NCBI GenBank assembly: GCA_964510295.1
Contig: CAZEBQ010000001.1
Span: 829 to 64,828, forward strand
Direction of reading: 5' to 3'
Length of the DNA stretch: 64,000 bases
Origin: an uncultured Anaerolineales bacterium
Lineage (GTDB): Bacteria; Planctomycetota; Phycisphaerae; FEN-1346
Shown here: piece after piece, positions 920 to 27,923 of the stretch
How positions within the stretch are numbered: position 1 is the stretch's first letter
Layout: each line of letters opens with the position of its first letter
Program-made: the position numbers and the translations under genes
Notes under the pieces: generated by a model
Told to the model about the DNA's origin: nothing
Database searches by the model: none
Seen by the model: only the letters and a program-made list of their open reading frames with translations

Positions 920-1590
920 GGCTCGGCGGCCTCCTCGGTGAGGCCGGCGGCGGGGACGAGGACTTCGCGCGGGTCGGCGGCGGATTCCGACTCGCTGATC
1001 TTGCCCTTGGCGATCTTGGCCCGTCCGACGGCAGCCGTCATCTCGTCGCCCAGGTGAATGCGGATGCGGCGAATGTTCTCGCGGGCCGAGGGTATCTTGA
1101 CCTTATCGAAGAGGTTGACTCGCTGGATGATCTTCACCAGTTCCCGGTGCAGGCGGTCGTACTGTTGATCGAGGACGTCGCGTTCGGCCTGGCGGCGGTT
1201 GACTTCCCGGAGGTCGAGCAGGGCCCGGTCCACCCACGCGGGGGTCGAGAACAGGCTGTACGTCGGCTGCGGAAAGACCACGTCTTCGAGGACCGGGATG
1301 GTCACGCCCGCGACGTTGGCGGTGGTGGTTCGGATCTCCTGCGGCCGGGCGGCCGTCTCGACGTCGACGCCGGCCCGATCGGCCAGAACCGCCCGGTAGG
1401 CGTCGAAGGTGCGGCGTGCGGCATCGGCGGCGTCACGGGCGGCGTGCCGTTTCTTCGTCACGTCGCGGACGGTTGCCTGCAACTGCTGCTGCTTCAGTTT
1501 CAGCATGGGCAGGTACCGCTCGAACCGCGCGAGCGCTTCGCGCTGTCGCTTAAGTTCCGGGCGCGTCAGTTTGAGTTTACGTTGTACCAT
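916..1590 (-). CDS. atpD: V-type ATP synthase subunit D
   Basis: Translation MVQRKLKLTRPELKRQREALARFERYLPMLKLKQQQL... matches the V-ATPase D subunit family. The start was moved to the internal ATG at 1588-1590 because the upstream part of the track ORF reads through a non-coding palindrome. Confidence 0.85.
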   Translation of the reverse strand: MVQRKLKLTRPELKRQREALARFERYLPMLKLKQQQLQATVRDVTKKRHAARDAADAARRTFDAYRAVLADRAGVDVETAARPQEIRTTTANVAGVTIPVLEDVVFPQPTYSLFSTPAWVDRALLDLREVNRRQAERDVLDQQYDRLHRELVKIIQRVNLFDKVKIPSARENIRRIRIHLGDEMTAAVGRAKIAKGKISESESAADPREVLVPAAGLTEEAAEP

Positions 1591-1598
1591 GGTCACAC

Positions 1599-1659
1599 GA
1601 TTTCGGATTTCGGATTGCGGATTTCGGATTGGCGCTAATCCGAAATCCCAAATCCGCAA

Positions 1660-1660
<1 letters not shown>
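1599..1660. repeat. Palindromic array of heptamer repeats (GATTNCG x5 followed by CGNAATC x4) filling the atpB-atpD spacer
   Basis: Directly visible as gatttcg gatttcg gattgcg gatttcg gattggc / gctaatc cgaaatc ccaaatc cgcaatc. A 7-nt period is incompatible with coding, and the two halves are inverted relative to each other. Confidence 0.7.
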
Positions 1661-2967
<1,307 letters not shown>

Positions 2968-3101
2968 AGCGTTCGATTCCTCTGCGACCTCGACAAAGCC
3001 AGTCCGTCGAATGTCGAAGGCCAAATGCTCAAGGGTGGCTTCGCCGCGCAGGCCCTGTTGCCGGCCGGTCCTGTCTGTTTCGTGTTCTTCCGCGCATGCG
3101 G

Positions 3102-3136
3102 CATTTGGCATTTATCATTGTTCATTCGTCATTCGC
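3102..3136. repeat. Tandem heptamers CATTNNN x5 (AATGNNN on the coding strand) at the atpA stop / atpA-atpB spacer
   Basis: catttgg catttat cattgtt cattcgt cattcgc forms an AT-rich island in an otherwise ~68% GC region. It overlaps the atpA stop codon at 3122-3124. Confidence 0.6.
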
Positions 3137-4921
3137 GACAGCCTGGAGTTCCGCGTCGGCGTCCTGTTCGGTCGATGTTCCCTCCGCCTTCTGCGGTGCG
3201 TCGACGCCTTTCGTGGCGAGGAACCGGTCGATCTCGGCCTCGATCTGGCGGAACTCCTCGCTGTCCATGGCGGCGAAGTTCCAGTTGCGGTAGAGGTCCT
3301 GGCCCTTGACGAGGCTGCGACGGGCCGTGTCCTTGTCGTCGAACTCGAAGTCGAGGTCGATGAACTCCAGGATCTTGTCGAAGACGCACTGCTGCCGCTC
3401 GGCCGACGTGGCGGCGTCCACCGGGTCGAAGGCGTTTTGCTGAAGGTACACGTTGTCGAAGAACTCGGCCTTCAGCATGACGAGAAAATCGTCGATGCTT
3501 GTGCCTTCCTCGCCGACGACCGCCATCATCTGCTTCACGTCGTTGCCGTGGCGCAGCAGGCGGCTGACGCGGGTGGTCTTCTCGGCGTCGATGATGCCAG
3601 CGTACTTGGACCACGAGTCGAGCGGGTCGATGGCGGGGTAGCGGCGGGCATCGGCCCGGGCCTGGCTCAGACCGTGGAACGCACCGACGACCTTCAGGGT
3701 GCCCTGCGTGACGGGTTCCTCGAAGTTGCCACCCGCCGGGCTGACGGTTCCGCCGATCGTGACGGAGCCGATGCGGCCGTCGGTCAGTTCAACCGCGCCG
3801 GCACGCTCGTAGAAACTGGCGATGCGGCTCTCGAGGTACGCCGGAAAGGCTTCTTCGCCGGGGATCTCTTCCAGGCGGCCCGAGACCTCGCGCAGCGCCT
3901 GGGCCCAGCGGCTGGTCGAGTCGGCCAGCAGCAGCACGTTCAGGCCCATCTGCCGGTAGTACTCGGCCAGCGTGGTGGCGGTGTAGACCGACGCCTCTCG
4001 TGCGGCCACGGGCATGGCGCTGGTGTTGCAGATGATGATAGTCCGTTCCATGAGCGATCGGCCGGTGCGCGGGTCCTGGAGTTCGGGGAACTCGCGGATC
4101 GTCTCGACCACTTCGCCCGCCCGCTCGCCGCAGGCCGCAACAATCACGATGTCTACCTGGGCGTACCGCGACGTGATCTGCTGGAGCACGGTCTTGCCGG
4201 CGCCGAACGGGCCGGGAATGCAGTACGTGCCGCCCCGGACGACCGGGAACATCGAATCGATGATCCGGACCTGGGTGACGAGCGGCTCGGAGGGCATGAG
4301 GCGGCGCCGGGAGACGTTCAGGGCACGCTTCACGGGCCACGTTTGCGTCATGGTGACGGGATGTTCGCTACCCGCCTCGTCCGCGAGGACGGCGATCTCG
4401 TCTTCGATTGTGTAGTCGCCGGGGTCGGCGATGCGGGCGACTTTCAGGTCGCCCGTCGCATTGAACGGCGCCATGATCTGATGCTCGAAGAGGCCTTCAG
4501 GGACCGTGCCCAGCGTATCGGCCGCCCGAACGGTCGCGCCCGCCTCGACCTTGGGTGTGAACGGCCACGTCTTGTCTGTCGCCAGAGCGTCGATGTAGAC
4601 GCCGGGCTTCAGGAAGAAGCCTTCCTGCTCGGCGAGTTGGTACAACGGGTTCTGGAGACCGTCGTAGACCTGCCCGAGCAGGCCGGGACCGAGGGTGACC
4701 GAGAGCATCTCCTCCCGGAACTCGACCACGTCGCCGACCTTCAGGCCGCGCGTCTCCTCGAACACCTGGAGGTCGGCCAGCCGGCCGCGGATGCGAATCA
4801 CCTCCGAAAGGAGCCTGGCCCCGTCGCCGCGACAACAGTAGCCGACGGAGTTCTGCACGACCCGGCCGGTGGTCTCGGCGATGACCATGTTTCCGAAGAC
4901 GGCTACGATTCGTCCGTTCAA
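3122..4921 (-). CDS. atpA: V-type ATP synthase catalytic subunit A
   Basis: Walker A GPFGAGKT is present in ...CIPGPFGAGKTVLQQ..., and the overall 599-aa sequence matches V/A-type A subunits. Confidence 0.9.
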   Translation of the reverse strand: MNGRIVAVFGNMVIAETTGRVVQNSVGYCCRGDGARLLSEVIRIRGRLADLQVFEETRGLKVGDVVEFREEMLSVTLGPGLLGQVYDGLQNPLYQLAEQEGFFLKPGVYIDALATDKTWPFTPKVEAGATVRAADTLGTVPEGLFEHQIMAPFNATGDLKVARIADPGDYTIEDEIAVLADEAGSEHPVTMTQTWPVKRALNVSRRRLMPSEPLVTQVRIIDSMFPVVRGGTYCIPGPFGAGKTVLQQITSRYAQVDIVIVAACGERAGEVVETIREFPELQDPRTGRSLMERTIIICNTSAMPVAAREASVYTATTLAEYYRQMGLNVLLLADSTSRWAQALREVSGRLEEIPGEEAFPAYLESRIASFYERAGAVELTDGRIGSVTIGGTVSPAGGNFEEPVTQGTLKVVGAFHGLSQARADARRYPAIDPLDSWSKYAGIIDAEKTTRVSRLLRHGNDVKQMMAVVGEEGTSIDDFLVMLKAEFFDNVYLQQNAFDPVDAATSAERQQCVFDKILEFIDLDFEFDDKDTARRSLVKGQDLYRNWNFAAMDSEEFRQIEAEIDRFLATKGVDAPQKAEGTSTEQDADAELQAVANDE

Positions 4922-20197: not shown

Positions 20198-20993
20198 AAA
20201 ACTGGCCGGCGGGTTCGAATTCACCGAGGGGCCGGCCGCCGATGCCGAGGGCAACGTCTTCTTCACCGATCAGCCGAACGACCGCATCCTGAAATGGAGC
20301 GTCGAGGGCAAACTCTCGACGTTCCTCCAGCCGTGCGGATGCTCGAACGGCCTCTACTTCGATCGCAGCGGCAACCTGCTGGCCTGCGCCGACGAGAACA
20401 ACCAATTGTGGTCGATCAATCCGTCGGGCAGGGTGACCATTCTCGTCAAGCATTTCAAGAACAGGCTGCTCAACGGCCCCAACGACGTGTGGGTTCGGCC
20501 CGACGGCGGCATCTATTTCACCGACCCGTTCTACAAGCGGTCGTACTGGAAGCGCGGGCCGATGGAGCAGGAGGGACAGTGCGTCTACTACCTTTCGGCC
20601 GACCGCAAGATCTTCAGACGCGTGACCACCGACCTGAAGCAGCCGAACGGCATCATCGGAACGCCCGACGGCAAGCAACTCTACGTGGCCGATATCGGCG
20701 CGAACACAACATATCTCTACGCCATCAACGAGGACGGGACCCTCGCCGACCGCAAACTCTTCTGCAAGATGGGCTCCGACGGCATGACCATCGATTCGGC
20801 GGGCAACGTCTACCTGACCGGCCGCGGGGTGACCGTCTTCGACCCAAGCGGTAACAAGATCGAACATATCCAGATCCCCGAACGCTGGACGGCCAACGTC
20901 TGCTTCGGCGGCAAAGACCGTAAGACGCTCTTCATCACGGCCAGCAAAAGTCTGTACGGCTTGCGCATGGCGGTTAAGGGAGCGGGTGGATGA
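20097..20993 (+). CDS. SMP-30/gluconolactonase/LRE-like six-bladed propeller protein
   Basis: A signal peptide is followed by FTEGPAADAEGNVFFTD...NGPNDVWVRPDGGIYFTDP..., typical of the SGL family. It overlaps the GH5 gene by ~100 nt. Confidence 0.8.
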   Translation: MKLTAAGVLVLVLVFGLTRSAAAEGIIAPGAKPEKLAGGFEFTEGPAADAEGNVFFTDQPNDRILKWSVEGKLSTFLQPCGCSNGLYFDRSGNLLACADENNQLWSINPSGRVTILVKHFKNRLLNGPNDVWVRPDGGIYFTDPFYKRSYWKRGPMEQEGQCVYYLSADRKIFRRVTTDLKQPNGIIGTPDGKQLYVADIGANTTYLYAINEDGTLADRKLFCKMGSDGMTIDSAGNVYLTGRGVTVFDPSGNKIEHIQIPERWTANVCFGGKDRKTLFITASKSLYGLRMAVKGAGG

Positions 20994-21204
20994 GACGGAT
21001 GCTCCCCGCCGGGGGGCGAGGTAGCCGCGAAGCCCCGGCCGTGGACCCGAAGCGCTGACCTGCGTGAGATTGGTGCGCGCCGGGTCGGCCTAGCCGCCGC
21101 GCACATGCGCCGTTATGCGCGGCGGGTGCCGAGACCACCGCCGAAGGTCGTACGCGCTGGGAGCCGGCCTCCCGGCCACGTGCCACACGGCCCGTAGTAC
21201 GTGT

Positions 21205-21330
21205 TTAGCGTGTCATTCCGAGCGAGCGAAGCGAGTCGAGGAATCTCGCCGTTATCCGTGTCCAGACGACGAGATTTCTCCGCTCGCCCTCGCCTTTGGC
21301 GAGGGCTCGGTCGAAATGACATCGCTTCGA
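21205..21330. repeat. Structured inverted-repeat element (candidate small RNA or MITE)
   Basis: tgtcattccgagcgagcgaagcgagtcgaggaatc ... gccctcgcctttggcgagggc ... ctcggtcgaaatgaca, with terminal inverted repeats tgtcattccgag / ctcgg(tc)gaaatgaca. It lies just upstream of the dtxR promoter. Confidence 0.4.
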
Positions 21331-21413
21331 GAGGAGGCTAAGCACGTACGGGCCGCGCGGGCGCGCAGGGGCACCCGTGAACGGTCCCGGCGAATTCCCG
21401 CCCAAAAAGGGGC

Positions 21414-21442
21414 TTGACAAGTTCGGCGCGGCGAACTATGAT
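21414..21442 (+). promoter_or_regulatory. Sigma70-type promoter (TTGACA-17-TATGAT) of the dtxR-feoAB operon
   Basis: ggcTTGACAagttcggcgcggcgaacTATGATgcc has a perfect -35, 17-nt spacer and near-consensus -10, 60 nt upstream of the GTG start. Confidence 0.6.
21420..21437 (+). promoter_or_regulatory. Operator-like inverted repeat AGTTCG-N6-CGAACT inside the promoter spacer, with a third half-site CGAACT at 21451-21456
   Basis: The palindrome is seen directly. The same AGTTYG-N6-CRAACT architecture recurs at 24640-24657 in front of the second dtxR gene. Confidence 0.55.
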
Positions 21443-21503
21443 GCCTGTGGCGAACTTTTGGGGGCAGAATCCTTTGTCACGGGCAAAGAGGGAGGTTCCC
21501 GCC

Positions 21504-21992
21504 GTGACGCAGGCAACGTCAGCCGCCGGACTCAGCGAGAGCCTTCAGGATTACCTGGAGGCTGTCTATCTGCTTGTCCAGCGCCACGGTGTGGCGCGGA
21601 TGAAGGAGATTGCGGCCCATGTCGGCGTCGGCAAGTCGTCGGTCACCTGTGGCGTTCAGGCCCTGGCCGAACGGGGCCTCGTCAACTACGAGCCGTACCA
21701 ATACGTGACGCTGACTGAGACAGGCGAAACCATGGGCAAGGCCCTCCTGCGGAAGCATCGTGTGCTGAAGCGGTTCCTGATGGAGGTCCTCGGCGTACCC
21801 GATGCGGAGGCCGAAGCGGTCGGTTGCAAGATGGAACATGCCATCAAGGGCGACGTGCTCGACCGGTTGGTGCGGTTCGTCCATTTCGTGGAGCAGCGTT
21901 CCGACGTCGATGGTCCTTGGGCGGAGGCGTTTCGGGAGTTCCGTCGCGATGCCGAGGGCCTCAACGGTTCTCTGGAGGGCCGACACACGTGA
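21504..21992 (+). CDS. DtxR/MntR-family metal-dependent transcriptional repressor (two-domain, ~162 aa)
   Basis: LSESLQDYLEAVYLLVQRHGVARMKEIAAHVGVGKSSVT... is the DtxR wHTH. A GTG start is preceded by AGAGGGAGG. The stop overlaps the feoA start (GTGA). Confidence 0.8.
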   Translation: MTQATSAAGLSESLQDYLEAVYLLVQRHGVARMKEIAAHVGVGKSSVTCGVQALAERGLVNYEPYQYVTLTETGETMGKALLRKHRVLKRFLMEVLGVPDAEAEAVGCKMEHAIKGDVLDRLVRFVHFVEQRSDVDGPWAEAFREFRRDAEGLNGSLEGRHT

Positions 21993-22273
21993 CACGCTTC
22001 GGACACGCCGGCCAACCTGGCGCCGTGTCGCTTGCCTCCCTGCCGGACGGCGCGTCGGCGCAGTTGGTCACGGTGGCGGGCGGCGTGGGGCTGCGGTCGC
22101 GTTTGGCGGCTATGGGGCTTCGCGCGGGCGTCGCCATCCGGGTCGTTCACAACGGCGGCCGCGGCCCGTTCGTTCTGGCGGCCGGCGAGTTGCGCATCGT
22201 TCTCGGCCGGGGAATGGCGCGGAAGGTCATGGTGGTTCCCAGCGGTGGGCCGGATCATGGCAGACGCGAGTAA
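21989..22273 (+). CDS. feoA: Ferrous iron transport protein A
   Basis: A ~94-aa SH3-like protein: LASLPDGASAQLVTVAGGVGLRSRLAAMGLRAGVAIRVVHNGGRGPFVLAAGELRIVLGRGMARKVMV. Confidence 0.75.
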   Translation: MTRFGHAGQPGAVSLASLPDGASAQLVTVAGGVGLRSRLAAMGLRAGVAIRVVHNGGRGPFVLAAGELRIVLGRGMARKVMVVPSGGPDHGRRE

Positions 22274-24407
22274 ACCCGCCGCACCAGCCCCGGGCGAGAC
22301 CCGCCTGGCCCGAAACAGCCAAACCGTAACGGTCGCCCTGGCCGGAAACCCCAACTCCGGCAAGACGACGATCTTCAACGCACTGACGGGCTCGCGGCAG
22401 CACGTCGGGAATTACCCGGGCGTCACGGTCGAAAAGAAGGTTGGGGTCTGCCGGCACCGAGGCGTACGACTTGAGATCGTGGACCTGCCCGGCACCTACA
22501 GCCTGACGGCGTACGCGACGGACGAACTGGTGGCCCGCGAGTTTGTCATCGATGAGCACCCCGGGGTCGTCGTTGACATCCTCGACGGCTCGAACCTCGA
22601 GCGCAACCTGTTTCTGGCGGTGCAGTTCATGGAGTTGGGTCTGCCGCTGGTCCTCGTGCTGAACATGAGCGATCTGGCGTCGGCTCGCGGCTACGTGTTT
22701 GATCTCGAGCAACTGTCTGCCCTGCTGGGCGGTGTGCCCCTGATTCCGGCCGTCGGCAACCGCGGCCAAGGGATCGACAAGATTCGCGACGCCATCGTCG
22801 CCGTCGCAACGGGGGCGCGCCACCTGCGCCCGGTGCCGATCACGTATGGCCCGGAGATCGACAAAGAGGTCGACAAACTGGCTGCCGTCCTGGAGACCGA
22901 GGCCGAGCGTCTCGCGCCACGGCAGCCGCGGTGGGTCGCTCTGAAACTCCTCGAGAACGACCGGCGAATCCGCGAGCGCATCGAGCAGGTGTGTGAGAGC
23001 GCGGCGGCTGTCCTGGCGGCGGCTGACGAGGCGATCGCCCACCTCAGAAGAATCCTCGGCGACGAGCCCGAGATCGTCATCGCCGACCGGCGGTACGGGT
23101 TTATCAGCGGCGCCTGTCAGGAGACGGTTCGCAGCACGGTTGAGGCCCGGCACACGCGGTCCGACCAGATCGATGCCGTCATCACGCATCCTGTGCTGGG
23201 GCTGCCGATCTTCCTGGGCCTGCTGTATCTGGTCTTCTGGGGGACGTTCAGCCTGGGCGAGTACCCGATGGCCGCCATCGATTATGCCTTCCAGTGGTTG
23301 GGGCAGGCCGTGGGGGGGCTGTGGGCGGCCGGCAGCGACAGCGCCCTGCGGTCGCTCCTCGTGCACGGTGTCATCCGCGGCGTCGGTGCGGTGATCGTCT
23401 TTTTGCCGAACATCCTGATTCTGTTTCTGGCCATTGCGGTGCTGGAGGATTCCGGGTACATGGCCCGGGCGGCGTTTATCATGGACCGGTGGATGCACAA
23501 GATCGGCCTGCACGGTCAGAGTTTCATCCCGATGGTCATCGGCTTCGGGTGTACGATCCCGGCGATCATGGCGACGCGAGTCCTCGCGAGCCGGCGCGAC
23601 CGCCTCACGACGATGCTCATACTGCCGCTGATGAGTTGCAGCGCCCGCCTGCCGATTTACATGATGTTCACGGCCGCATTCTTCATCGAGAAGTGGCGAG
23701 GGCCGGTCCTGTGGACGATGTACGTCGTGGGGGCGGCTGTGGCGGTGCTGGCGGCCAAACTGCTCAAGTCCACACTCCTTCGCGGCGAGGCCGAACCGTT
23801 CGTCATGGAACTGCCCCCCTACCGCACCCCCACCGTCAAGGGCACACTCATCCACACGTGGCAGCGGGGCTGGATGTACGTCCGCAAGGCAGGCACGATC
23901 ATCCTCGGCGTCTCTATCCTCCTGTGGGCGCTGACCAGTTACCCCAAGCCGCACCCCCGGGAGACCGAGGACCTGGCGGCCGAGGGGCGGCAGGCGGCGG
24001 CGCTCGAATACTCGGTTGCTGGCCGCGTCGGCAAGGCCTTTGAGCCCGTCACCCGGCCGCTCGGATTCGATTGGCGGGTCAACACGGCCATGATGGGCGC
24101 ATTTGCCGCCAAGGAGGTCTTCGTCGCACAGATGAGCATCGTCTATTCGCTCGGCGACACGGATGAGGCCGAGGCCCAGCCGCTACAGACCGCGCTCAGG
24201 AGCAACTACACCCCCCTCCAGGCCATCGCCATCATGATCTTCTCTCTGCTCGGATTCCCCTGCATGGCCACGGTCGCCGTCATGTGGACTGAGAGCGGCT
24301 CCTGGAAATGGGCACTCCTTCAGTGGACAGGACTCACCGGCCTCGCCTACCTTGCCGCCTTGCTCGTGTATCAGATCGGCAGCGCCCTCGGATTGGCAGG
24401 GGGGTGA
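22257..24407 (+). CDS. feoB: Ferrous iron transport protein B (GTPase plus permease)
   Basis: A G-domain TVALAGNPNSGKTTIFNALTG ... VDLPGTYSL is followed by a polytopic membrane domain. Total length is 716 aa from ATG 22257. Confidence 0.9.
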   Translation: MADASKPAAPAPGETRLARNSQTVTVALAGNPNSGKTTIFNALTGSRQHVGNYPGVTVEKKVGVCRHRGVRLEIVDLPGTYSLTAYATDELVAREFVIDEHPGVVVDILDGSNLERNLFLAVQFMELGLPLVLVLNMSDLASARGYVFDLEQLSALLGGVPLIPAVGNRGQGIDKIRDAIVAVATGARHLRPVPITYGPEIDKEVDKLAAVLETEAERLAPRQPRWVALKLLENDRRIRERIEQVCESAAAVLAAADEAIAHLRRILGDEPEIVIADRRYGFISGACQETVRSTVEARHTRSDQIDAVITHPVLGLPIFLGLLYLVFWGTFSLGEYPMAAIDYAFQWLGQAVGGLWAAGSDSALRSLLVHGVIRGVGAVIVFLPNILILFLAIAVLEDSGYMARAAFIMDRWMHKIGLHGQSFIPMVIGFGCTIPAIMATRVLASRRDRLTTMLILPLMSCSARLPIYMMFTAAFFIEKWRGPVLWTMYVVGAAVAVLAAKLLKSTLLRGEAEPFVMELPPYRTPTVKGTLIHTWQRGWMYVRKAGTIILGVSILLWALTSYPKPHPRETEDLAAEGRQAAALEYSVAGRVGKAFEPVTRPLGFDWRVNTAMMGAFAAKEVFVAQMSIVYSLGDTDEAEAQPLQTALRSNYTPLQAIAIMIFSLLGFPCMATVAVMWTESGSWKWALLQWTGLTGLAYLAALLVYQIGSALGLAGG

Positions 24408-24408
24408 T

Positions 24409-24639
24409 ATGGCCACGGCAGAGACGATACTGGTGGTGGTTATCGTGGCGGCCATGACGGTGCTCGTCGGCCGGCGCATGTGGCGCACCCTCAGCGGCAA
24501 GGGGGAGACGTGTGGGGGCTGCTCCCGGTCGTGCGCTGTGGTGGCATCGCCCGACGGGCTCAGGCGAGGCGGTCGCCAACCGGCGTTAGCCCAAGAAAAG
24601 GACGAGTTTGGAGTTGACAAGTCGGTAAAGTCGTGCTAA
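24409..24639 (+). CDS. FeoB-associated Cys-rich membrane peptide (FeoC-like accessory)
   Basis: It starts 2 nt after the feoB stop. MATAETILVVVIVAAMTVLVGRRMWRTLSGKGETCGGCSRSC is a single TM helix plus a GCGGC-type Cys cluster, typical of the small FeoB-associated family. The C-terminal tail is longer than usual. Confidence 0.5.
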   Translation: MATAETILVVVIVAAMTVLVGRRMWRTLSGKGETCGGCSRSCAVVASPDGLRRGGRQPALAQEKDEFGVDKSVKSC

Positions 24640-24642
24640 AGT
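24614..24642 (+). promoter_or_regulatory. Sigma70-type promoter (TTGACA-17-TAAAGT) of the second dtxR gene
   Basis: agTTGACAagtcggtaaagtcgtgcTAAAGTttgg. The first 9 nt (ttgacaagt) are identical to the dtxR1 promoter. Confidence 0.5.
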
Positions 24643-24657
24643 TTGGATTGGCAAACT
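24640..24657 (+). promoter_or_regulatory. Operator-like inverted repeat AGTTTG-N6-CAAACT overlapping the -10/+1 of the dtxR2 promoter
   Basis: aAGTTTGgattggCAAACTt seen directly. It is followed by ggcaaacttttcgggcag, which parallels ggcgaacttttgggggcag at 21449-21467. Confidence 0.55.
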
Positions 24658-24681
24658 TTTCGGGCAGCGACAGAGGCCTTG

Positions 24682-25410
24682 ATGATGGGTGTTTCCGCAG
24701 AGTTGAGTGCCCAGTCCGAGGATTACCTGGAGGCTATTCTCCAGTTGGTTGCCCAGAAGGGCATCGCCCGGGCGCGCGACATCGCCAAGCGGCTCAGTGT
24801 CCACAAATCGACCGTCACCGGCGCGCTGAGACATCTGGCGGACAAGGGCCTTGTCAATTATACCCCTTACGAGGCGAGCACCCTGACGCCGCAAGGAAGG
24901 AAAATCGCCGGCGAGGTCCTGAGGCGGCACAAGACCATCAGCGCCTTTCTAAGGCAGGTCCTGCTGCTCCAAGAAGACGTTGCCGAGGGAAACGCCTGCC
25001 GCATGGAACATGCCGTGGACCAGGCCGTCATCAGCAGGCTGGTCCAGTTCATGGAATTCGTTCAGGCGTGCCCGGGAAGCCCCGAGGGATGGGCGCAATA
25101 CCTCGAGGGGAAGTGTGAACACGGCAACAAACGCAAGGACTGCCGGCAGTGCCTTGTGCTGAGCCATGCGGCGGCGAGTGCTGTGCCCACGCTTGATACC
25201 CTTGGGGCCGGTCAACGGGGCGCCGTCGTCAAGGTCCACGGCACCGGGGCGATCCGACGGCGGATCGTGGAGATGGGGGTCGTGCGCGGCACAGTCATCG
25301 GGGTGCTTAAGGCCGCGCCGGACGGGGGGCCGATGGAGGTCAGGCTCAAGGGCTACAATCTTGCTCTGCGGAAGGAGGAAGCCGCACGAATCCAGGTCAA
25401 GCCCGACTGA
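24682..25410 (+). CDS. DtxR/IdeR-family repressor with a C-terminal FeoA/SH3-like domain (three-domain type)
   Basis: The N-terminus LSAQSEDYLEAILQLVAQKGIARARDIAKRLSVHKSTVTGALRHL is a DtxR wHTH. The C-terminus GAGQRGAVVKVHGTGAIRRRIVEMGVVRGTVIGVLKAAPDGGPMEVRLKGYNLALRKEEAARIQV is a FeoA/SH3 fold. Confidence 0.75.
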   Translation: MMGVSAELSAQSEDYLEAILQLVAQKGIARARDIAKRLSVHKSTVTGALRHLADKGLVNYTPYEASTLTPQGRKIAGEVLRRHKTISAFLRQVLLLQEDVAEGNACRMEHAVDQAVISRLVQFMEFVQACPGSPEGWAQYLEGKCEHGNKRKDCRQCLVLSHAAASAVPTLDTLGAGQRGAVVKVHGTGAIRRRIVEMGVVRGTVIGVLKAAPDGGPMEVRLKGYNLALRKEEAARIQVKPD

Positions 25411-25469
25411 TCGCATTCGAGAAGGTCGGTGGACCGACAGCGAGGGCGACGCATGAGGCAACGAAGGCC

Positions 25470-25506
25470 TTTACCCCAGGCGAACGGGGGGAGAGAGAGC
25501 GTTTTT
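25470..25506 (+). terminator. Putative intrinsic terminator after dtxR2 (GC stem followed by T7)
   Basis: ccccaggcgaacggggggagagagagcgttttttt. The stem is short and imperfect but the T-run is strong. Confidence 0.35.
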
Positions 25507-25624
25507 TTGTCGCAGAAGTTGGGGCTCCCCAACATTGTTGTATTAGGCCAACTAGACCATGGGCGAACCGGAACACAACAACGCGGGGCGTCGCACCCTT
25601 GAACCCGTATCTTAGAAAGGAAGG

Positions 25625-26437
25625 ATGGAGATGCGACAGGCAGAAATTCACACAGGGTTGTTGATTCTGGTAACGATGTCGCTCGCCGGATGGTTGCCGG
25701 CGACGGCACGCGGGGCGGTGCTCGAACCCGCCGCCGACAACTGGATCAACTCGTGTTCGAGCGGCTGCACGGTCAACGGCGGCGCCGACGCCGAGATCCG
25801 GGTCCGAACCTCATGGTGGGGCGGCCAGACGAAGGAACCCAAGAACTTCCGGTCCCTTCTCCAGTTCGATCTGGCGTCGCTGCCGCCCGCCATCCAGGCG
25901 GACCCCGGCCTGATCACCAGCGCCACGCTTGGGCTCTACTACTGGAGCGCGCCGCACGACGACCCCGCCGGCCGCACCTACGTCGTCCACCGCGTCACCA
26001 ATTCCTGGGACGAGATGAACTCCACCTGGCAGGCACGCGATGATTACCAGGAGGCCAGCCCCGTGTACTGGGACCCCTTCAACACTGGCGTGCCCGCGTA
26101 CCAGCCGGGCGGAGGCGACTTTGCCTCGACCGTCTATGCGACCGCCGCCGTTCCCCACTCCACCGACACCTGGATGACGTGGAACGTGACGGGCCTGGTC
26201 CGCGAATGGGTCGCCGGGACGCACGCGAACCTCGGGCTGATCGTCAAGGACGCGAGTGAGATCGAGGGGAACCCCGGCAGCGGCGCGGTCAGTTACCACG
26301 CCCGGTTCAGGAGCCGGGACTACCAGGACACGGGCCTGCGGCCGTACCTGGAGGTCGTGCCCGAACCGGCGACCATCGCGCTGGTCGGGCTTGGGACGGT
26401 TGCCCTGGCGGTTTCGCGAAGGCGCGGCCGTCGGTGA
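25625..26437 (+). CDS. PEP-CTERM-anchored secreted protein with a DNRLRE-type carbohydrate-binding domain
   Basis: A signal peptide and a DNRLRE-like region (SLLQFDLASLP...VVHRVTNSWDEMNSTWQ) are followed by a C-terminal VPEPATIALVGLGTVALAVSRRRGRR (PEP motif, TM helix, Arg cluster). Confidence 0.7.
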   Translation: MEMRQAEIHTGLLILVTMSLAGWLPATARGAVLEPAADNWINSCSSGCTVNGGADAEIRVRTSWWGGQTKEPKNFRSLLQFDLASLPPAIQADPGLITSATLGLYYWSAPHDDPAGRTYVVHRVTNSWDEMNSTWQARDDYQEASPVYWDPFNTGVPAYQPGGGDFASTVYATAAVPHSTDTWMTWNVTGLVREWVAGTHANLGLIVKDASEIEGNPGSGAVSYHARFRSRDYQDTGLRPYLEVVPEPATIALVGLGTVALAVSRRRGRR

Positions 26438-26512: not shown

Positions 26513-27223
26513 GTGATGAGGCGCAGAGCCCCGAGTGGGCGAACCGCCGGCCGCGGCGCGTTCACGCTCGTCGAACTGATGGTCCTCGCGTCGATCCTCG
26601 CGGTCCTCGCGGGCCTGCTGTTCCCAGCGGTGGGCGCGGCCTATGCCGTGGCAGACCGCGTGACGTGCGCGAGCAACCTGAAACAGATCGGCCTGGCCGT
26701 CATCACCTATGCAAACCAGCACGGGGGTATGTACCCGACCGCCGAAGATGCCTGGGGCAAAGGCGGGCCCGGCAACTGGTGGGAGAACCCCGATTTCCTC
26801 ACGCTCCTGGCCGTCGAGCCGGGTTGGCGCGAACCCTCGGTGTTGACCTGCCCGGCCGACACGCAGCCGGACCTGTTCTGCGACGGCCGGCCGAAGCCCC
26901 TCTGCTCAAGTTACGCTGCCAACACGTCGTGTTTCGGGGCGAGGCGCGGCGGGTCCAGAGCAGCGCGCCCGAATACTCTCATCAAGCAGCCTTCCCGAAC
27001 GCTGGCGTTCTGCGACGCGGCAACCAGCAGCGACGCGCCCCTGGTCGTCGGCCACCAGGGGTGCGTCGAGGGCGGAATCGCCTTTCGCCACAAGGGCTGT
27101 GCGCAGGGCGTATTCCTCGATGGCCACGTGGATGCCCTTTCCCCGGCCGATGTACCGCTCGGCCATGACGCCTGGAAGGAGCCTCTGTGGGGCGCCGATC
27201 CGCAACTTTGGCAGGTGCGGTAG
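26513..27223 (+). CDS. Prepilin-type N-terminal cleavage/methylation domain protein with an H-X9-DG (DUF1559) motif
   Basis: GAFTLVELMVLASILAVLAGLL is the pseudopilin N-terminus. The C-terminal FRHKGCAQGVFLDGHVDAL is the H-X9-DG signature that is massively expanded in Planctomycetes. Confidence 0.75.
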   Translation: MMRRRAPSGRTAGRGAFTLVELMVLASILAVLAGLLFPAVGAAYAVADRVTCASNLKQIGLAVITYANQHGGMYPTAEDAWGKGGPGNWWENPDFLTLLAVEPGWREPSVLTCPADTQPDLFCDGRPKPLCSSYAANTSCFGARRGGSRAARPNTLIKQPSRTLAFCDAATSSDAPLVVGHQGCVEGGIAFRHKGCAQGVFLDGHVDALSPADVPLGHDAWKEPLWGADPQLWQVR

Positions 27224-27263: not shown

Positions 27264-27923
27264 ATGGAAGCATCTAATGAGAGGCGGACAAGCGAACACG
27301 GCGGCAGGGCCTTCGTATCCTGGCTGATCGCCGCGCTCTTTCTGGTCCTTCTGGGTTCCGGGGTGGTGCTCTTTGCCGCTCCACGCTGCAAGGACGCTGC
27401 CTGGACGGCCTGGGGTACCCTTGGCTTGACAAAAGACCAATGGGAAGCCCTTCACGTGAACGCCGCGGCCCTTTTCGCCCTGGCCACGGCTGCGCACCTG
27501 GCGCTCAACTGGAAAGCCTTTGTTGGATATCTGCGTGTCACTCGTGCCGCCCGGTGTGGGAGCGTTTGGGCAACGGCGGCGGCAGCCCTGGTGGGCGCCG
27601 TGCTCATCGCAGGCGTCGCGATGGAAATGCAGCCCTTCGAGGCCCTGACGGCGCTCAGCGAAGGCCTGAAGGACGACTATGCCTCGTCGATTGGTCGGGC
27701 GCCCTGGCCGTGTGCCCAACGGGCCACGGTAGGCAACGTGGCTCGCCGCCTGGGTCTCTCCCCTGAAGACGCGCTGGCGGCCCTTCGTCGCGCGGGCTAT
27801 CGCGCACCGAGCGAACGGAGCACCCTCCTGCAAGTGGCAGCCGACAACGGCGTCGCGCCCGCGGACGTGTTTGGGATAATCGTAACGGCTTCGCGTTCCG
27901 GCGCGCAGGGCCGGGCGCGATGA
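27264..27923 (+). CDS. Membrane protein, DUF4405-like (two N-terminal TM helices plus a helical C-domain)
   Basis: WLIAALFLVLLGSGVVLFAAP and AAALFALATAAHLALNWKAF are TM helices. This is a family-level guess only. Confidence 0.4.
   Translation: MEASNERRTSEHGGRAFVSWLIAALFLVLLGSGVVLFAAPRCKDAAWTAWGTLGLTKDQWEALHVNAAALFALATAAHLALNWKAFVGYLRVTRAARCGSVWATAAAALVGAVLIAGVAMEMQPFEALTALSEGLKDDYASSIGRAPWPCAQRATVGNVARRLGLSPEDALAALRRAGYRAPSERSTLLQVAADNGVAPADVFGIIVTASRSGAQGRAR

Follow-up and report, generated by a model that had tools for sequence, protein, structure and literature searches.

We analysed a ferrous-iron uptake (Feo) locus in a 64-kb stretch of contig CAZEBQ010000001.1, from the assembly of an uncultured Anaerolineales bacterium (GCA_964510295.1); the whole stretch is called the window. 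Our reading of positions 21200-25700, combined with the open reading frame list and a Pfam scan, identified five co-directional genes in the order dtxR1-feoA-feoB-Cys-rich peptide-dtxR2, the order that a first-pass annotation of the same DNA had given, with a three-domain dtxR as the last gene. We consider it probable, from the gene content and the upstream sequences described below, that the locus, which comes from a planctomycete of Phycisphaerae type, is an iron-responsive gene island under two autoregulated repressors of the DtxR/MntR family. The five genes are the following:

21504 to 21992, forward strand: dtxR1, two-domain DtxR/MntR-family repressor of 162 amino acids (aa), GTG start
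21989 to 22273, forward strand: feoA, 94 aa, Pfam FeoA PF04023 (8.3e-14)
22257 to 24407, forward strand: feoB, 716 aa
24409 to 24639, forward strand: FeoB-associated Cys-rich membrane peptide, 76 aa, Pfam PF12669 (8e-8)
24682 to 25410, forward strand: dtxR2, three-domain DtxR-family repressor of 242 aa with a C-terminal FeoA-type SH3 domain

The GTG start of dtxR1 is preceded by a GGGAGG ribosome-binding site, and its product consists of Fe_dep_repress (PF01325, 3.1e-13) and Fe_dep_repr_C (PF02742, 5.8e-18) domains only. DtxR2 combines the same two domains (PF01325, 2.3e-15; PF02742, 2.2e-19) with a FeoA domain (PF04023, 3e-19) that matches solved FeoA structures (e.g., 2k5l, 1.5e-15); the PF01325 matches of both proteins lie above the gathering score. 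The paralogues are 41% identical over 135 aa. The recognition-helix signature is V-G-K-S-S-V-T in DtxR1, which we aligned with Bacillus subtilis MntR, and V-H-K-S-T-V-T in DtxR2. With 28% identity and an E-value of 0.068, the FeoA domain of DtxR2 is too distant from the FeoA of this locus to have been copied from it recently. The linker between the dimerisation and FeoA domains of DtxR2 (residues 130-157, window positions 25069-25152) holds four cysteines spaced C130-x14-C145-x8-C154-x2-C157 and is covered by no Pfam model. Similar CP...C...CxxC-like motifs occur in many three-domain relatives (P0010, P0014, P0024, P0026, L056, L057) and in some two-domain relatives (L019, L025, L027, L040_a), and DtxR1 lacks the motif. 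Such a motif could bind structural Zn, or it could hold an Fe-S cluster or sense redox state.

FeoB has its N-terminal G-domain, helical domain and Gate/FeoB_C membrane domain (Pfam FeoB_N 8.8e-59, FeoB_Cyto 5e-23, Gate 5e-42, FeoB_C 3e-22), and FeoA is a small SH3-like protein. The first-pass annotation had proposed tight translational coupling through overlaps at three successive junctions, two of which are present: the GTG start of feoA overlaps the dtxR1 stop (GTGA), and the 5' end of feoB overlaps the 3' end of feoA by 17 nucleotides (nt; 22257-22273). At the third, the feoB TGA ends at 24407 and the peptide ATG stands at 24409, leaving a 1-nt gap. The tight dtxR1/feoA junction is kept as GTGA, TAGTG or ATGA in the related loci L001, L002, L003 and L005, and the overlaps would couple translation of DtxR1, FeoA and FeoB. 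A promoter/terminator scan of 21000-25800 found no terminator in the interval from the peptide gene to dtxR2, so transcripts starting upstream of dtxR1 may read into dtxR2.

The same scan returned only two sigma-70-like promoters, P1 and P2, and each coincides with candidate operators (O1a and O1b at P1, O2 at P2):

21414 to 21442, forward strand: promoter P1 of the dtxR1-feoA-feoB-peptide operon, 11 of 12 matches in the promoter scan
21420 to 21437, unstranded: candidate operator O1a, AGTTCG-GCGCGG-CGAACT = AGTTCGGCGCGGCGAACT, DtxR1-type
21439 to 21456, unstranded: candidate operator O1b, 19 base pairs (bp) downstream of O1a
24614 to 24642, forward strand: promoter P2 of dtxR2, 10 of 12 matches plus TG
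24638 to 24659, unstranded: candidate operator O2, AAAGTTTG-GATTGG-CAAACTTT with core 24640-24657 = AGTTTGGATTGGCAAACT, DtxR2-type

P1 has a -35 TTGACA (21414-21419), a 17-nt spacer and a -10 TATGAT (21437-21442). O1a is a perfect palindrome that fills this spacer, with C/G at position 5 of the half-sites, and O1b joins a degenerate left half, TGATGC, which overlaps the -10, to a conserved right half, CGAACT (21451-21456). P2 has a -35 TTGACA, a 17-nt spacer and a -10 TAAAGT with an upstream TG-n-. O2 overlaps the P2 -10 and start region and has T/A at half-site position 5. The full palindrome is thus placed differently in the two promoters, in the -35/-10 spacer at P1 and over -10/+1 at P2. 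P2 drives dtxR2, not feo.

Several sequence features that the first-pass annotation had pointed out in these promoters are there. Both begin TTGACAAGT (ttgacaagt), and the inverted repeat AGTTYG-N6-CRAACT lies at 21420-21437 and 24640-24657, inside the two promoters. A second shared element, written ggcRaacttttNgggcag, is present at both (21449-21467 and 24650-24667), the P1 copy having one extra G (a 1-nt indel) relative to that pattern. In both promoters the right half of the second site runs on into ACTTTT..GGGCAG. The 'ggcgaactttt' part of this element at P1 is best read as the right half of the second operator, O1b, because the footprint in the close clade of the window (see below) keeps the downstream CGAACT while the flanking bases vary.

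We assessed how often such sites would arise by chance. With up to one mismatch, AGTTYG-N6-CRAACT matches only O1a and O2 in the 64 kb, with an expectation of 0.29 and at least two matches in 5 of 100 shuffles; this test is weak alone, as the motif was defined post hoc from the two sites. When one mismatch in the 10 fixed positions is allowed, the more general AGTTNG-N6-CNAACT has three matches in the window and no more (shuffle mean 0.64), in P1, in P2 and in a candidate third promoter, P3, downstream of dtxR2. Relaxing the threshold to 8 of 10 gives noise (22 matches in the 64 kb versus 12.7 expected), so nothing beyond these three promoters can be claimed in the window. The window has no T/A-type box before feo and no C/G-type box before dtxR2. 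An Rfam scan of 20900-25700 (E up to 1) gave no match, and thus no riboswitch or known small RNA accounts for the conserved leader elements.

Other features lie close to these promoters. An extra perfect left half-site of the DtxR2 type, AGTTTG, stands at 24605-24610, just upstream of the P2 -35 and 35 bp before O2; it is kept in L001 and L037 and is missing from more distant DtxR2-type promoters. The Cys-rich peptide is conserved only over residues 1-48 in L001, L002, L003 and L005, and its tail (about residues 49-76, 24553-24639) is variable. The reading frame of the tail crosses the P2 -35 and its TAA stop (24637-24639) falls within the P2 -10; instead of being functional protein, the tail may simply have come with the promoter sequence as a by-product. 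Just upstream of P1, a long imperfect hairpin (21211-21330; GTGTCATTCCGAGCGAGCGAAGCGAGTCGAGGAATCTCG ... CGAGATTTCTCCGCTCG...CTCGGTCGAAATGACA) lies in a 151-nt stretch (21195-21345) with a minimum free energy of -79 kcal/mol and a z-score of -7.0 against shuffles. It is single-copy in the window and has no Rfam match, and a different hairpin occupies the orthologous position of L002. It looks like an intergenic element resembling repetitive extragenic palindromes or miniature inverted-repeat transposable elements (REP/MITE-like), or a strong terminator of the upstream gene.

We searched for the locus in other genomes. A FeoB scan with one genome per species yielded 36 loci, nearly all from metagenome-assembled genomes (MAGs) of Phycisphaerae/Planctomycetota, and about 25 of the 36 have dtxR-feoA-feoB in the same order. 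We carried out the phylogenetic footprinting that the first-pass annotation had suggested on 22 dtxR-feoA-feoB upstream regions, anchored on the palindrome; half-sites are kept and spacers vary. The consensus, cTtGacAAAGTTaGgc..g.CtAACTAT, shows a spacer wholly taken up by an 18-bp palindrome between the -35 and a -10 that starts at the last base of the palindrome, with a second palindrome or half-site 19 bp downstream over -10/+1; distant relatives have a fuller second palindrome (e.g., TATTAG-GCTGTA-TTAACT in L032). About 30 related Phycisphaerae/Planctomycetota loci share this arrangement. In the close clade of the window (L001, L002, L003, L005 and L007, whose FeoB proteins are 74-90% identical), single-base variants, confined to L005 and L007, are the only changes in the -35, AGTTCG, CGAACT, TATGAT and the downstream CGAACT; the O1a half-sites are the same in L001, L002, L003 and L005 and agree at 11 of 12 bases in L007. 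The downstream CGAACT is unchanged in all six close-clade promoters and the six bases preceding it vary, as do the N6 spacers (gcgcgg, gtgcgg, ccttgc) and everything upstream of the -35. This conservation of half-sites in orthologous promoters, while spacers and flanks vary, indicates that the operator is more than chance. It extends to loci with about 55% FeoB identity and across two regulator subfamilies.

Ten loci have a further copy of the palindrome between feoB and the preceding feoA or dtxR, some 50 nt ahead of feoB (L011 3186, L014 1048, L015 998, L017 941, L018 1284, L024 3940, L032 3953, L047 5877, L048 5875 and L053 6064), which ties the motif to feo and not to the regulator gene alone. 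In L056 (2588) and L057 (3094), a perfect palindrome, GTTCGGCATGCCGAA(C), lies over the feoB start codon. The clade of the window has no copy before feoB because feoA and feoB overlap there. Very probably the palindromes of P1 and P2 are DtxR-family operators, positioned so as to block RNA polymerase, and dtxR1 and dtxR2 are each probably autoregulated.

Some of the related contigs have peculiarities. On CAZIJC010000034.1 (L003/L004) the feoB-peptide region occurs twice in inverted orientation (feoB at 1248-3374 on the forward strand, second copy at 7372-6300 on the reverse strand), a duplication that is either genuine or a palindrome produced by the assembly. L001, L003, L006 and L047 are titled 'uncultured Anaerolineales bacterium' despite feo loci nearest to Phycisphaerae/Planctomycetota and planctomycete PEP-CTERM and DUF1559 genes, and the taxonomic labels of these bins look unreliable.

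Three-domain proteins of the DtxR2 type are common (more than 676 homologues, E-values up to 1e-20). In all six contexts examined, the three-domain dtxR lies directly upstream of feoB or feoA-feoB; in the window it lies downstream of feoB. A metagenome scan with DtxR2 returned nine loci, including only one close orthologue, from the same species as L001. The promoters of three-domain orthologues (about 50% protein identity) reproduce P2, not P1: TTGACA-17-TA(A/G)AGT precedes the genes of L001, L047, L048, L053 and L057, and in the same five loci AGTTTG-N6-CAAAC(A/T) lies over -10/+1, with variants in L050 and L052. DtxR2-type loci often carry a second T/A-type copy before feoB.

To examine whether operator and regulator co-vary, we listed for each regulator gene its best upstream site and the first residues of the recognition helix:

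Helix V-H-K-S-T-V (DtxR2 type): GTTTG..CAAAC, 8 of 8 promoters
Helix V-G-K-S-S-V (DtxR1 type): GTTCG..CGAAC, 7 of 7 promoters, the distant L021 included
Helix V-x-R/K-x-S-V-T-G-A: GTTAG..CTAAC or a variant, 14 of 16 GTTAG promoters

The left half is GTTAG in 16 promoters; the adjoining regulator has the [RK]-x-S-V-T signature in 14 of them, and the right half is CTAAC or a variant in 14. The change at position 5 is symmetric on both arms, and this symmetry together with the co-variation makes the adjacent DtxR-like protein, rather than another factor, the likely binder. The comparison suggests that DtxR1 is matched to the C/G-type site of P1 and DtxR2 to the T/A-type site of P2. We therefore lean towards a model of paralogue-specific operators, in which each regulator would recognise its own one-base variant of AGTTNG-N6-CNAACT. 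The first-pass annotation had instead proposed one operator shared by both regulators, which would converge on a single feo system. The comparison speaks against a single operator, as palindrome placement and position 5 differ and position 5 tracks the regulator subfamily, and against convergence, as P2 drives dtxR2 and no operator of its type precedes feo in the window.

We examined whether the metal specificity of the two regulators could be read from their sequences. We aligned the proteins with B. subtilis MntR using HMMER. At the ligand positions D8, E11, H77, E99, E102 and H103, both paralogues have D, E, H, C, E, H, as does every one of the 32 aligned relatives that extend over these positions. 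They thus share five of the six Mn ligands with MntR, the exception being Cys in place of E99; the all-oxygen/His binuclear site of MntR with E99 is found in neither paralogue and in none of the 32 relatives. In DtxR numbering, mapped by eye, an Asp occupies the position of Met10 and Cys102, Glu105 and His106 are kept, a mixture of the Mn-type and Fe-type sets. Of the ancillary site of DtxR, residues E83 and H98 are not conserved. Guedon and Helmann reportedly showed in 2003 that Asp at DtxR position 10 is Mn-type and Cys at position 102 Fe-type. At the Pfam level both proteins belong to the DtxR/MntR family, with the winged helix-turn-helix (HTH) domain PF01325, PF02742 with conserved ligands and a palindrome overlapping the promoter. 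They score below the NCBIfam equivalog cut-offs for MntR (NF003025, 90.5 and 76.3 bits versus 138; NF008273, 76.4 and 90.9 versus 153) and for DtxR (NF053665, 41.7 and 52.9 versus 290). We rejected a division into a Mn sensor and an Fe sensor by domain count (two versus three) because the ligand sets are identical. The Mn-type versus Fe-type split offered as an example in the first-pass annotation fails for the same reason, and both regulator subfamilies adjoin feoB in many genomes. Given this constant pairing with feoB, Fe2+ is most likely the co-repressor of both DtxR1 and DtxR2.

Downstream of dtxR2 lie the third operator-like site and a group of three genes:

25507 to 25553, forward strand: candidate promoter P3 with an operator pair, a run of seven T with TTGTCG (25507-25512)
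25517 to 25534: candidate operator O3a, AGTTGGGGCTCCCCAACA, G/C at position 5, 107 nt after the dtxR2 stop
25536 to 25553: candidate operator O3b, TGTTGT-ATTAGG-CCAACT = TGTTGTATTAGGCCAACT, +19 from O3a, the tandem layout of P1
25625 to 26437, forward strand: DNRLRE/CBM96-domain secreted protein with a PEP-CTERM anchor (Pfam CBM96, Disaggr_repeat, PEP-CTERM)
26513 to 27223, forward strand: prepilin-type pseudopilin-like protein (H-X9-DG), weak DUF1559 and GspG N-terminal matches
27264 to 27923, forward strand: DUF4405 membrane protein, putative haem-b cytochrome (Pfam PF14358, 1.3e-14)

O3a is the third and last site in the 64 kb with at least 9 of 10 fixed positions. L001 and the distant L017 likewise have the pattern TTTTTTTGYC-N4-5-AGTTNGG..C.AACA after dtxR2, and the O3b half-site CCAACT at +19 is kept in L001. 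The product of 25625-26437 matches NCBIfam DNRLRE_dom (1.4e-27) and has a homologue in L017 (33% identity, 5e-31). Orthologues of the pseudopilin-like protein, 38-48% identical overall and 38-41% in L017 and L047, occur in feoB-x-hemP-PEP-CTERM-N_methyl(-CBM96-DUF4405) arrays of L017, L047, L056 and L057, where the three-domain dtxR lies upstream of feoB (L047, L056, L057) or between feoB and hemP (L017), and also in CBM96-N_methyl(-DUF4405) arrays of L054 and L055. L055 and L056 have a DUF4405 gene at the corresponding place. Proteins of the DUF4405 family bind haem b and have a relative in FezC, the ferrosome cytochrome (PMC11334425). We suggest, as a hypothesis only, that the module captures or reduces iron outside the cytoplasm and feeds it to Feo; it may be an unrecognised iron-acquisition module.

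These observations can be combined into a working mechanism. Under iron-replete conditions, metal-loaded DtxR1 dimers would occupy O1a in the P1 spacer and the O1b half-site over -10/+1, excluding RNA polymerase and silencing dtxR1-feoA-feoB-peptide. Metal-loaded DtxR2 would likewise occupy O2 over -10/+1 of its own promoter, and probably also O3a/O3b before the PEP-CTERM, pseudopilin-like and DUF4405 genes. Under iron limitation the apo-repressors would leave the DNA and all three units would be expressed, with negative autoregulation fixing the set-point.

Several points weigh against an island controlled through paralogue-specific operators. The correlation between helix and operator is confounded by phylogeny, and the promoters represent perhaps four or five independent lineages. 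L017 has A/T-type boxes before both of its co-resident paralogues, and in L057, whose regulator is of the HKST type, the palindrome at the feoB start is GTTCGGCATGCCGAA. The two boxes differ by one base pair per half-site and the DtxR family tolerates degenerate sites, which makes cross-binding by DtxR1 and DtxR2 plausible. The mixture of a Mn-type Asp and an Fe-type Cys means that the metal cannot be read from sequence. The -10 of P3 is weak and O3a could simply be the dtxR2 terminator. More generally, the sequences show the gene identities, the promoter and operator geometry, its conservation and the co-variation of operator with helix, and from these we infer the binder of each site, the metal (Fe2+ most likely) and repression. 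A shared operator class is a possibility to which we give appreciable but distinctly lower credence: both paralogues would bind P1 and P2 (and P3), jointly or hierarchically tuning feo, and may differ in metal preference or affinity, repress one another or form heterodimers. In addition to the small difference between the half-sites and the boxes of L017, this possibility draws on the K-S-[ST]-V-T common to both helices, on the ACTTTT..GGGCAG that follows the second right half in P1 and P2 alike, and on the read-through from P1 that may feed dtxR2, no terminator having been found between the peptide gene and dtxR2. It also has a precedent in Haloferax volcanii, where TroR represses the DtxR paralogue idr (PMC10783522). 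However, the position-5 base tracks the regulator subfamily in all 15 GKSS and HKST cases, the full palindromes occupy different promoter positions, and in the window no T/A-type box precedes feo and no C/G-type box precedes dtxR2. The identical ligand sets, moreover, leave a Mn-versus-Fe division of labour between the two without sequence support.

The likeness of P1 and P2 could also be a remnant of promoter duplication or reflect a general promoter constraint (TTGACA, AT-rich -10), with palindromes that either bind no protein or are bound by another regulator such as Fur. We consider this very improbable. The post hoc definition of the motif, the 5 of 100 shuffles with at least two matches and the 22 matches versus 12.7 expected at 8 of 10 positions speak for it, but in two regulator subfamilies, and among loci whose FeoB identity falls to about 55%, spacers vary between half-sites that are kept; position 5 changes symmetrically on both arms, and the half-site follows the recognition helix of the regulator encoded next to it. 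The Fur box is AT-rich, and the sites are unlike it; their geometry is that of a validated DtxR-family box (PMC10783522). Recent promoter duplication as the main cause of the likeness was rejected because DtxR2-type promoters in genomes without the tandem arrangement share the position and sequence of O2. At the third site, the 25517-25534 palindrome may instead be an intrinsic terminator of dtxR2, with the PEP-CTERM, pseudopilin-like and DUF4405 genes as unrelated neighbours. O3a does score as a terminator-like hairpin: its GC-rich stem has 6 bp, its loop has 4 nt, and ATTGTTGTAT forms the tail. We nevertheless regard this as rather unlikely: the stem is mismatched and the tail not T-rich in L001, the stem is AT-rich with no T tail in L017, and AGTTNGG-N4-CC/CTAACA with the preceding TTTTTTTGYC is kept in both despite the loss of the hairpin. 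The CCAACT at +19 in L001 and the synteny of the downstream module with feo/hemP in L017, L047, L056 and L057 point the same way.

We compared the locus with known DtxR-family systems. The commonest form of the box in the relatives is AGTTAGG-N4-CCTAACT (e.g., AGTTAGGCATGCCTAACT in L011), which we take as the ancestral form of the planctomycete box. It shares the geometry TTAGG-N4-CCTAA with the TroR box of H. volcanii, TTTAGGC-NNN-CCTAAAA, which was defined by chromatin immunoprecipitation sequencing, validated with reporters and found in tandem (PMC10783522); the class of operator is therefore a known one. The sites have the spacing of the TroR cores, TTAGG and CCTAA 4 bp apart, and distant relatives such as L011 have the sequence too; the window sites differ at half-site position 5, with C/G (P1), T/A (P2) and G/C (P3) in place of the TroR-type A, the boxes of P1 and P2 thus having C or T. 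The first-pass annotation had called the motif previously unreported. This does not hold for its geometry; for the GTTCG and GTTTG half-site variants of the planctomycete box, we found no description in the literature searched. Our comparison with predicted archaeal DtxR regulon motifs follows the H. volcanii paper that cites them, as far as its account of them goes (PMC10783522). Like the regulators proposed here, H. volcanii TroR is a DtxR-family iron-dependent repressor that acts on a semi-palindrome, with tandem motifs at its targets, within a network of several DtxR paralogues that have distinct motifs and in which one paralogue represses another (PMC10783522). It differs in that the promoters are archaeal (TATA box and B recognition element), troR is not autoregulated, and the targets are siderophore and ATP-binding cassette (ABC) uptake genes, not feoAB (PMC10783522).

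Corynebacterium diphtheriae DtxR and Mycobacterium IdeR resemble DtxR2 in having three domains (winged HTH, dimerisation/metal, SH3-like). They are Fe2+-dependent repressors acting on promoter-overlapping palindromes, and Cys102, Glu105 and His106 are conserved in the window proteins, whereas Met10 is replaced by Asp and E83 and H98 are not conserved. Their classical 19-bp box, TTAGGTTAGCCTAACCTAA (TTAGGTTAGSCTAACCTAA), has no match in the window with up to three mismatches. The DtxR/IdeR structures align only to residues of about 7-134 of DtxR2, whose C-terminal domain matches bona fide FeoA. MntR of B. subtilis and Escherichia coli shares the two-domain architecture of DtxR1. The MntR proteins are the best characterised sequence relatives (PDB 1on1, E 2e-16), and their helix, VHPSSVT, is similar to VHKSTVT in DtxR2 and VGKSSVT in DtxR1, but here the neighbouring transporter genes encode Feo, for Fe2+, in place of mntH or mntABC. 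Treponema TroR responds to both Mn and Fe; it is the single regulator of its system, encoded by the last gene of an ABC transporter operon, and has another operator sequence (PMC2628430). Fusions of a FeoA domain to a DtxR-type HTH are a known InterPro architecture (PMC8980893), which is exactly that of DtxR2. Our literature searches found no characterised member of the feoB-adjacent FeoA-DtxR subfamily, and no paper on DtxR-feo regulation in Planctomycetota was found in the literature searched.

The locus is of an ordinary type, an autoregulated metal-uptake operon of the DtxR family, and its lineage is unstudied. Iron-uptake regulation in Planctomycetota is essentially unstudied as well. One prediction, that Feo in this lineage is under DtxR-family repressors and not under Fur, is what one would expect of the family and is modestly interesting. 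A further prediction is that a one-base operator switch and a helix signature of two to three residues separate paralogous regulons, which would aid regulon prediction from metagenomes. If the PEP-CTERM/pseudopilin-like/DUF4405 module belongs to the iron regulon, this would suggest a function for abundant planctomycete families of unknown role. The most far-reaching version, which we advance tentatively and consider doubtful, is that the single symmetric change at position 5 (GTTCG/GTTTG/GTTAG), read by the helix starts G-K-S-S, H-K-S-T and R/K-x-S, insulates the paralogues from one another, and that DtxR2 also controls a hitherto unrecognised Feo-associated extracytoplasmic module, accompanied by hemP in relatives, which would capture or reduce iron for FeoB. 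If true, it would provide a simple, transferable specificity code for the DtxR family and the first functional handle on the hugely expanded planctomycete family of pseudopilin-like (DUF1559) proteins.

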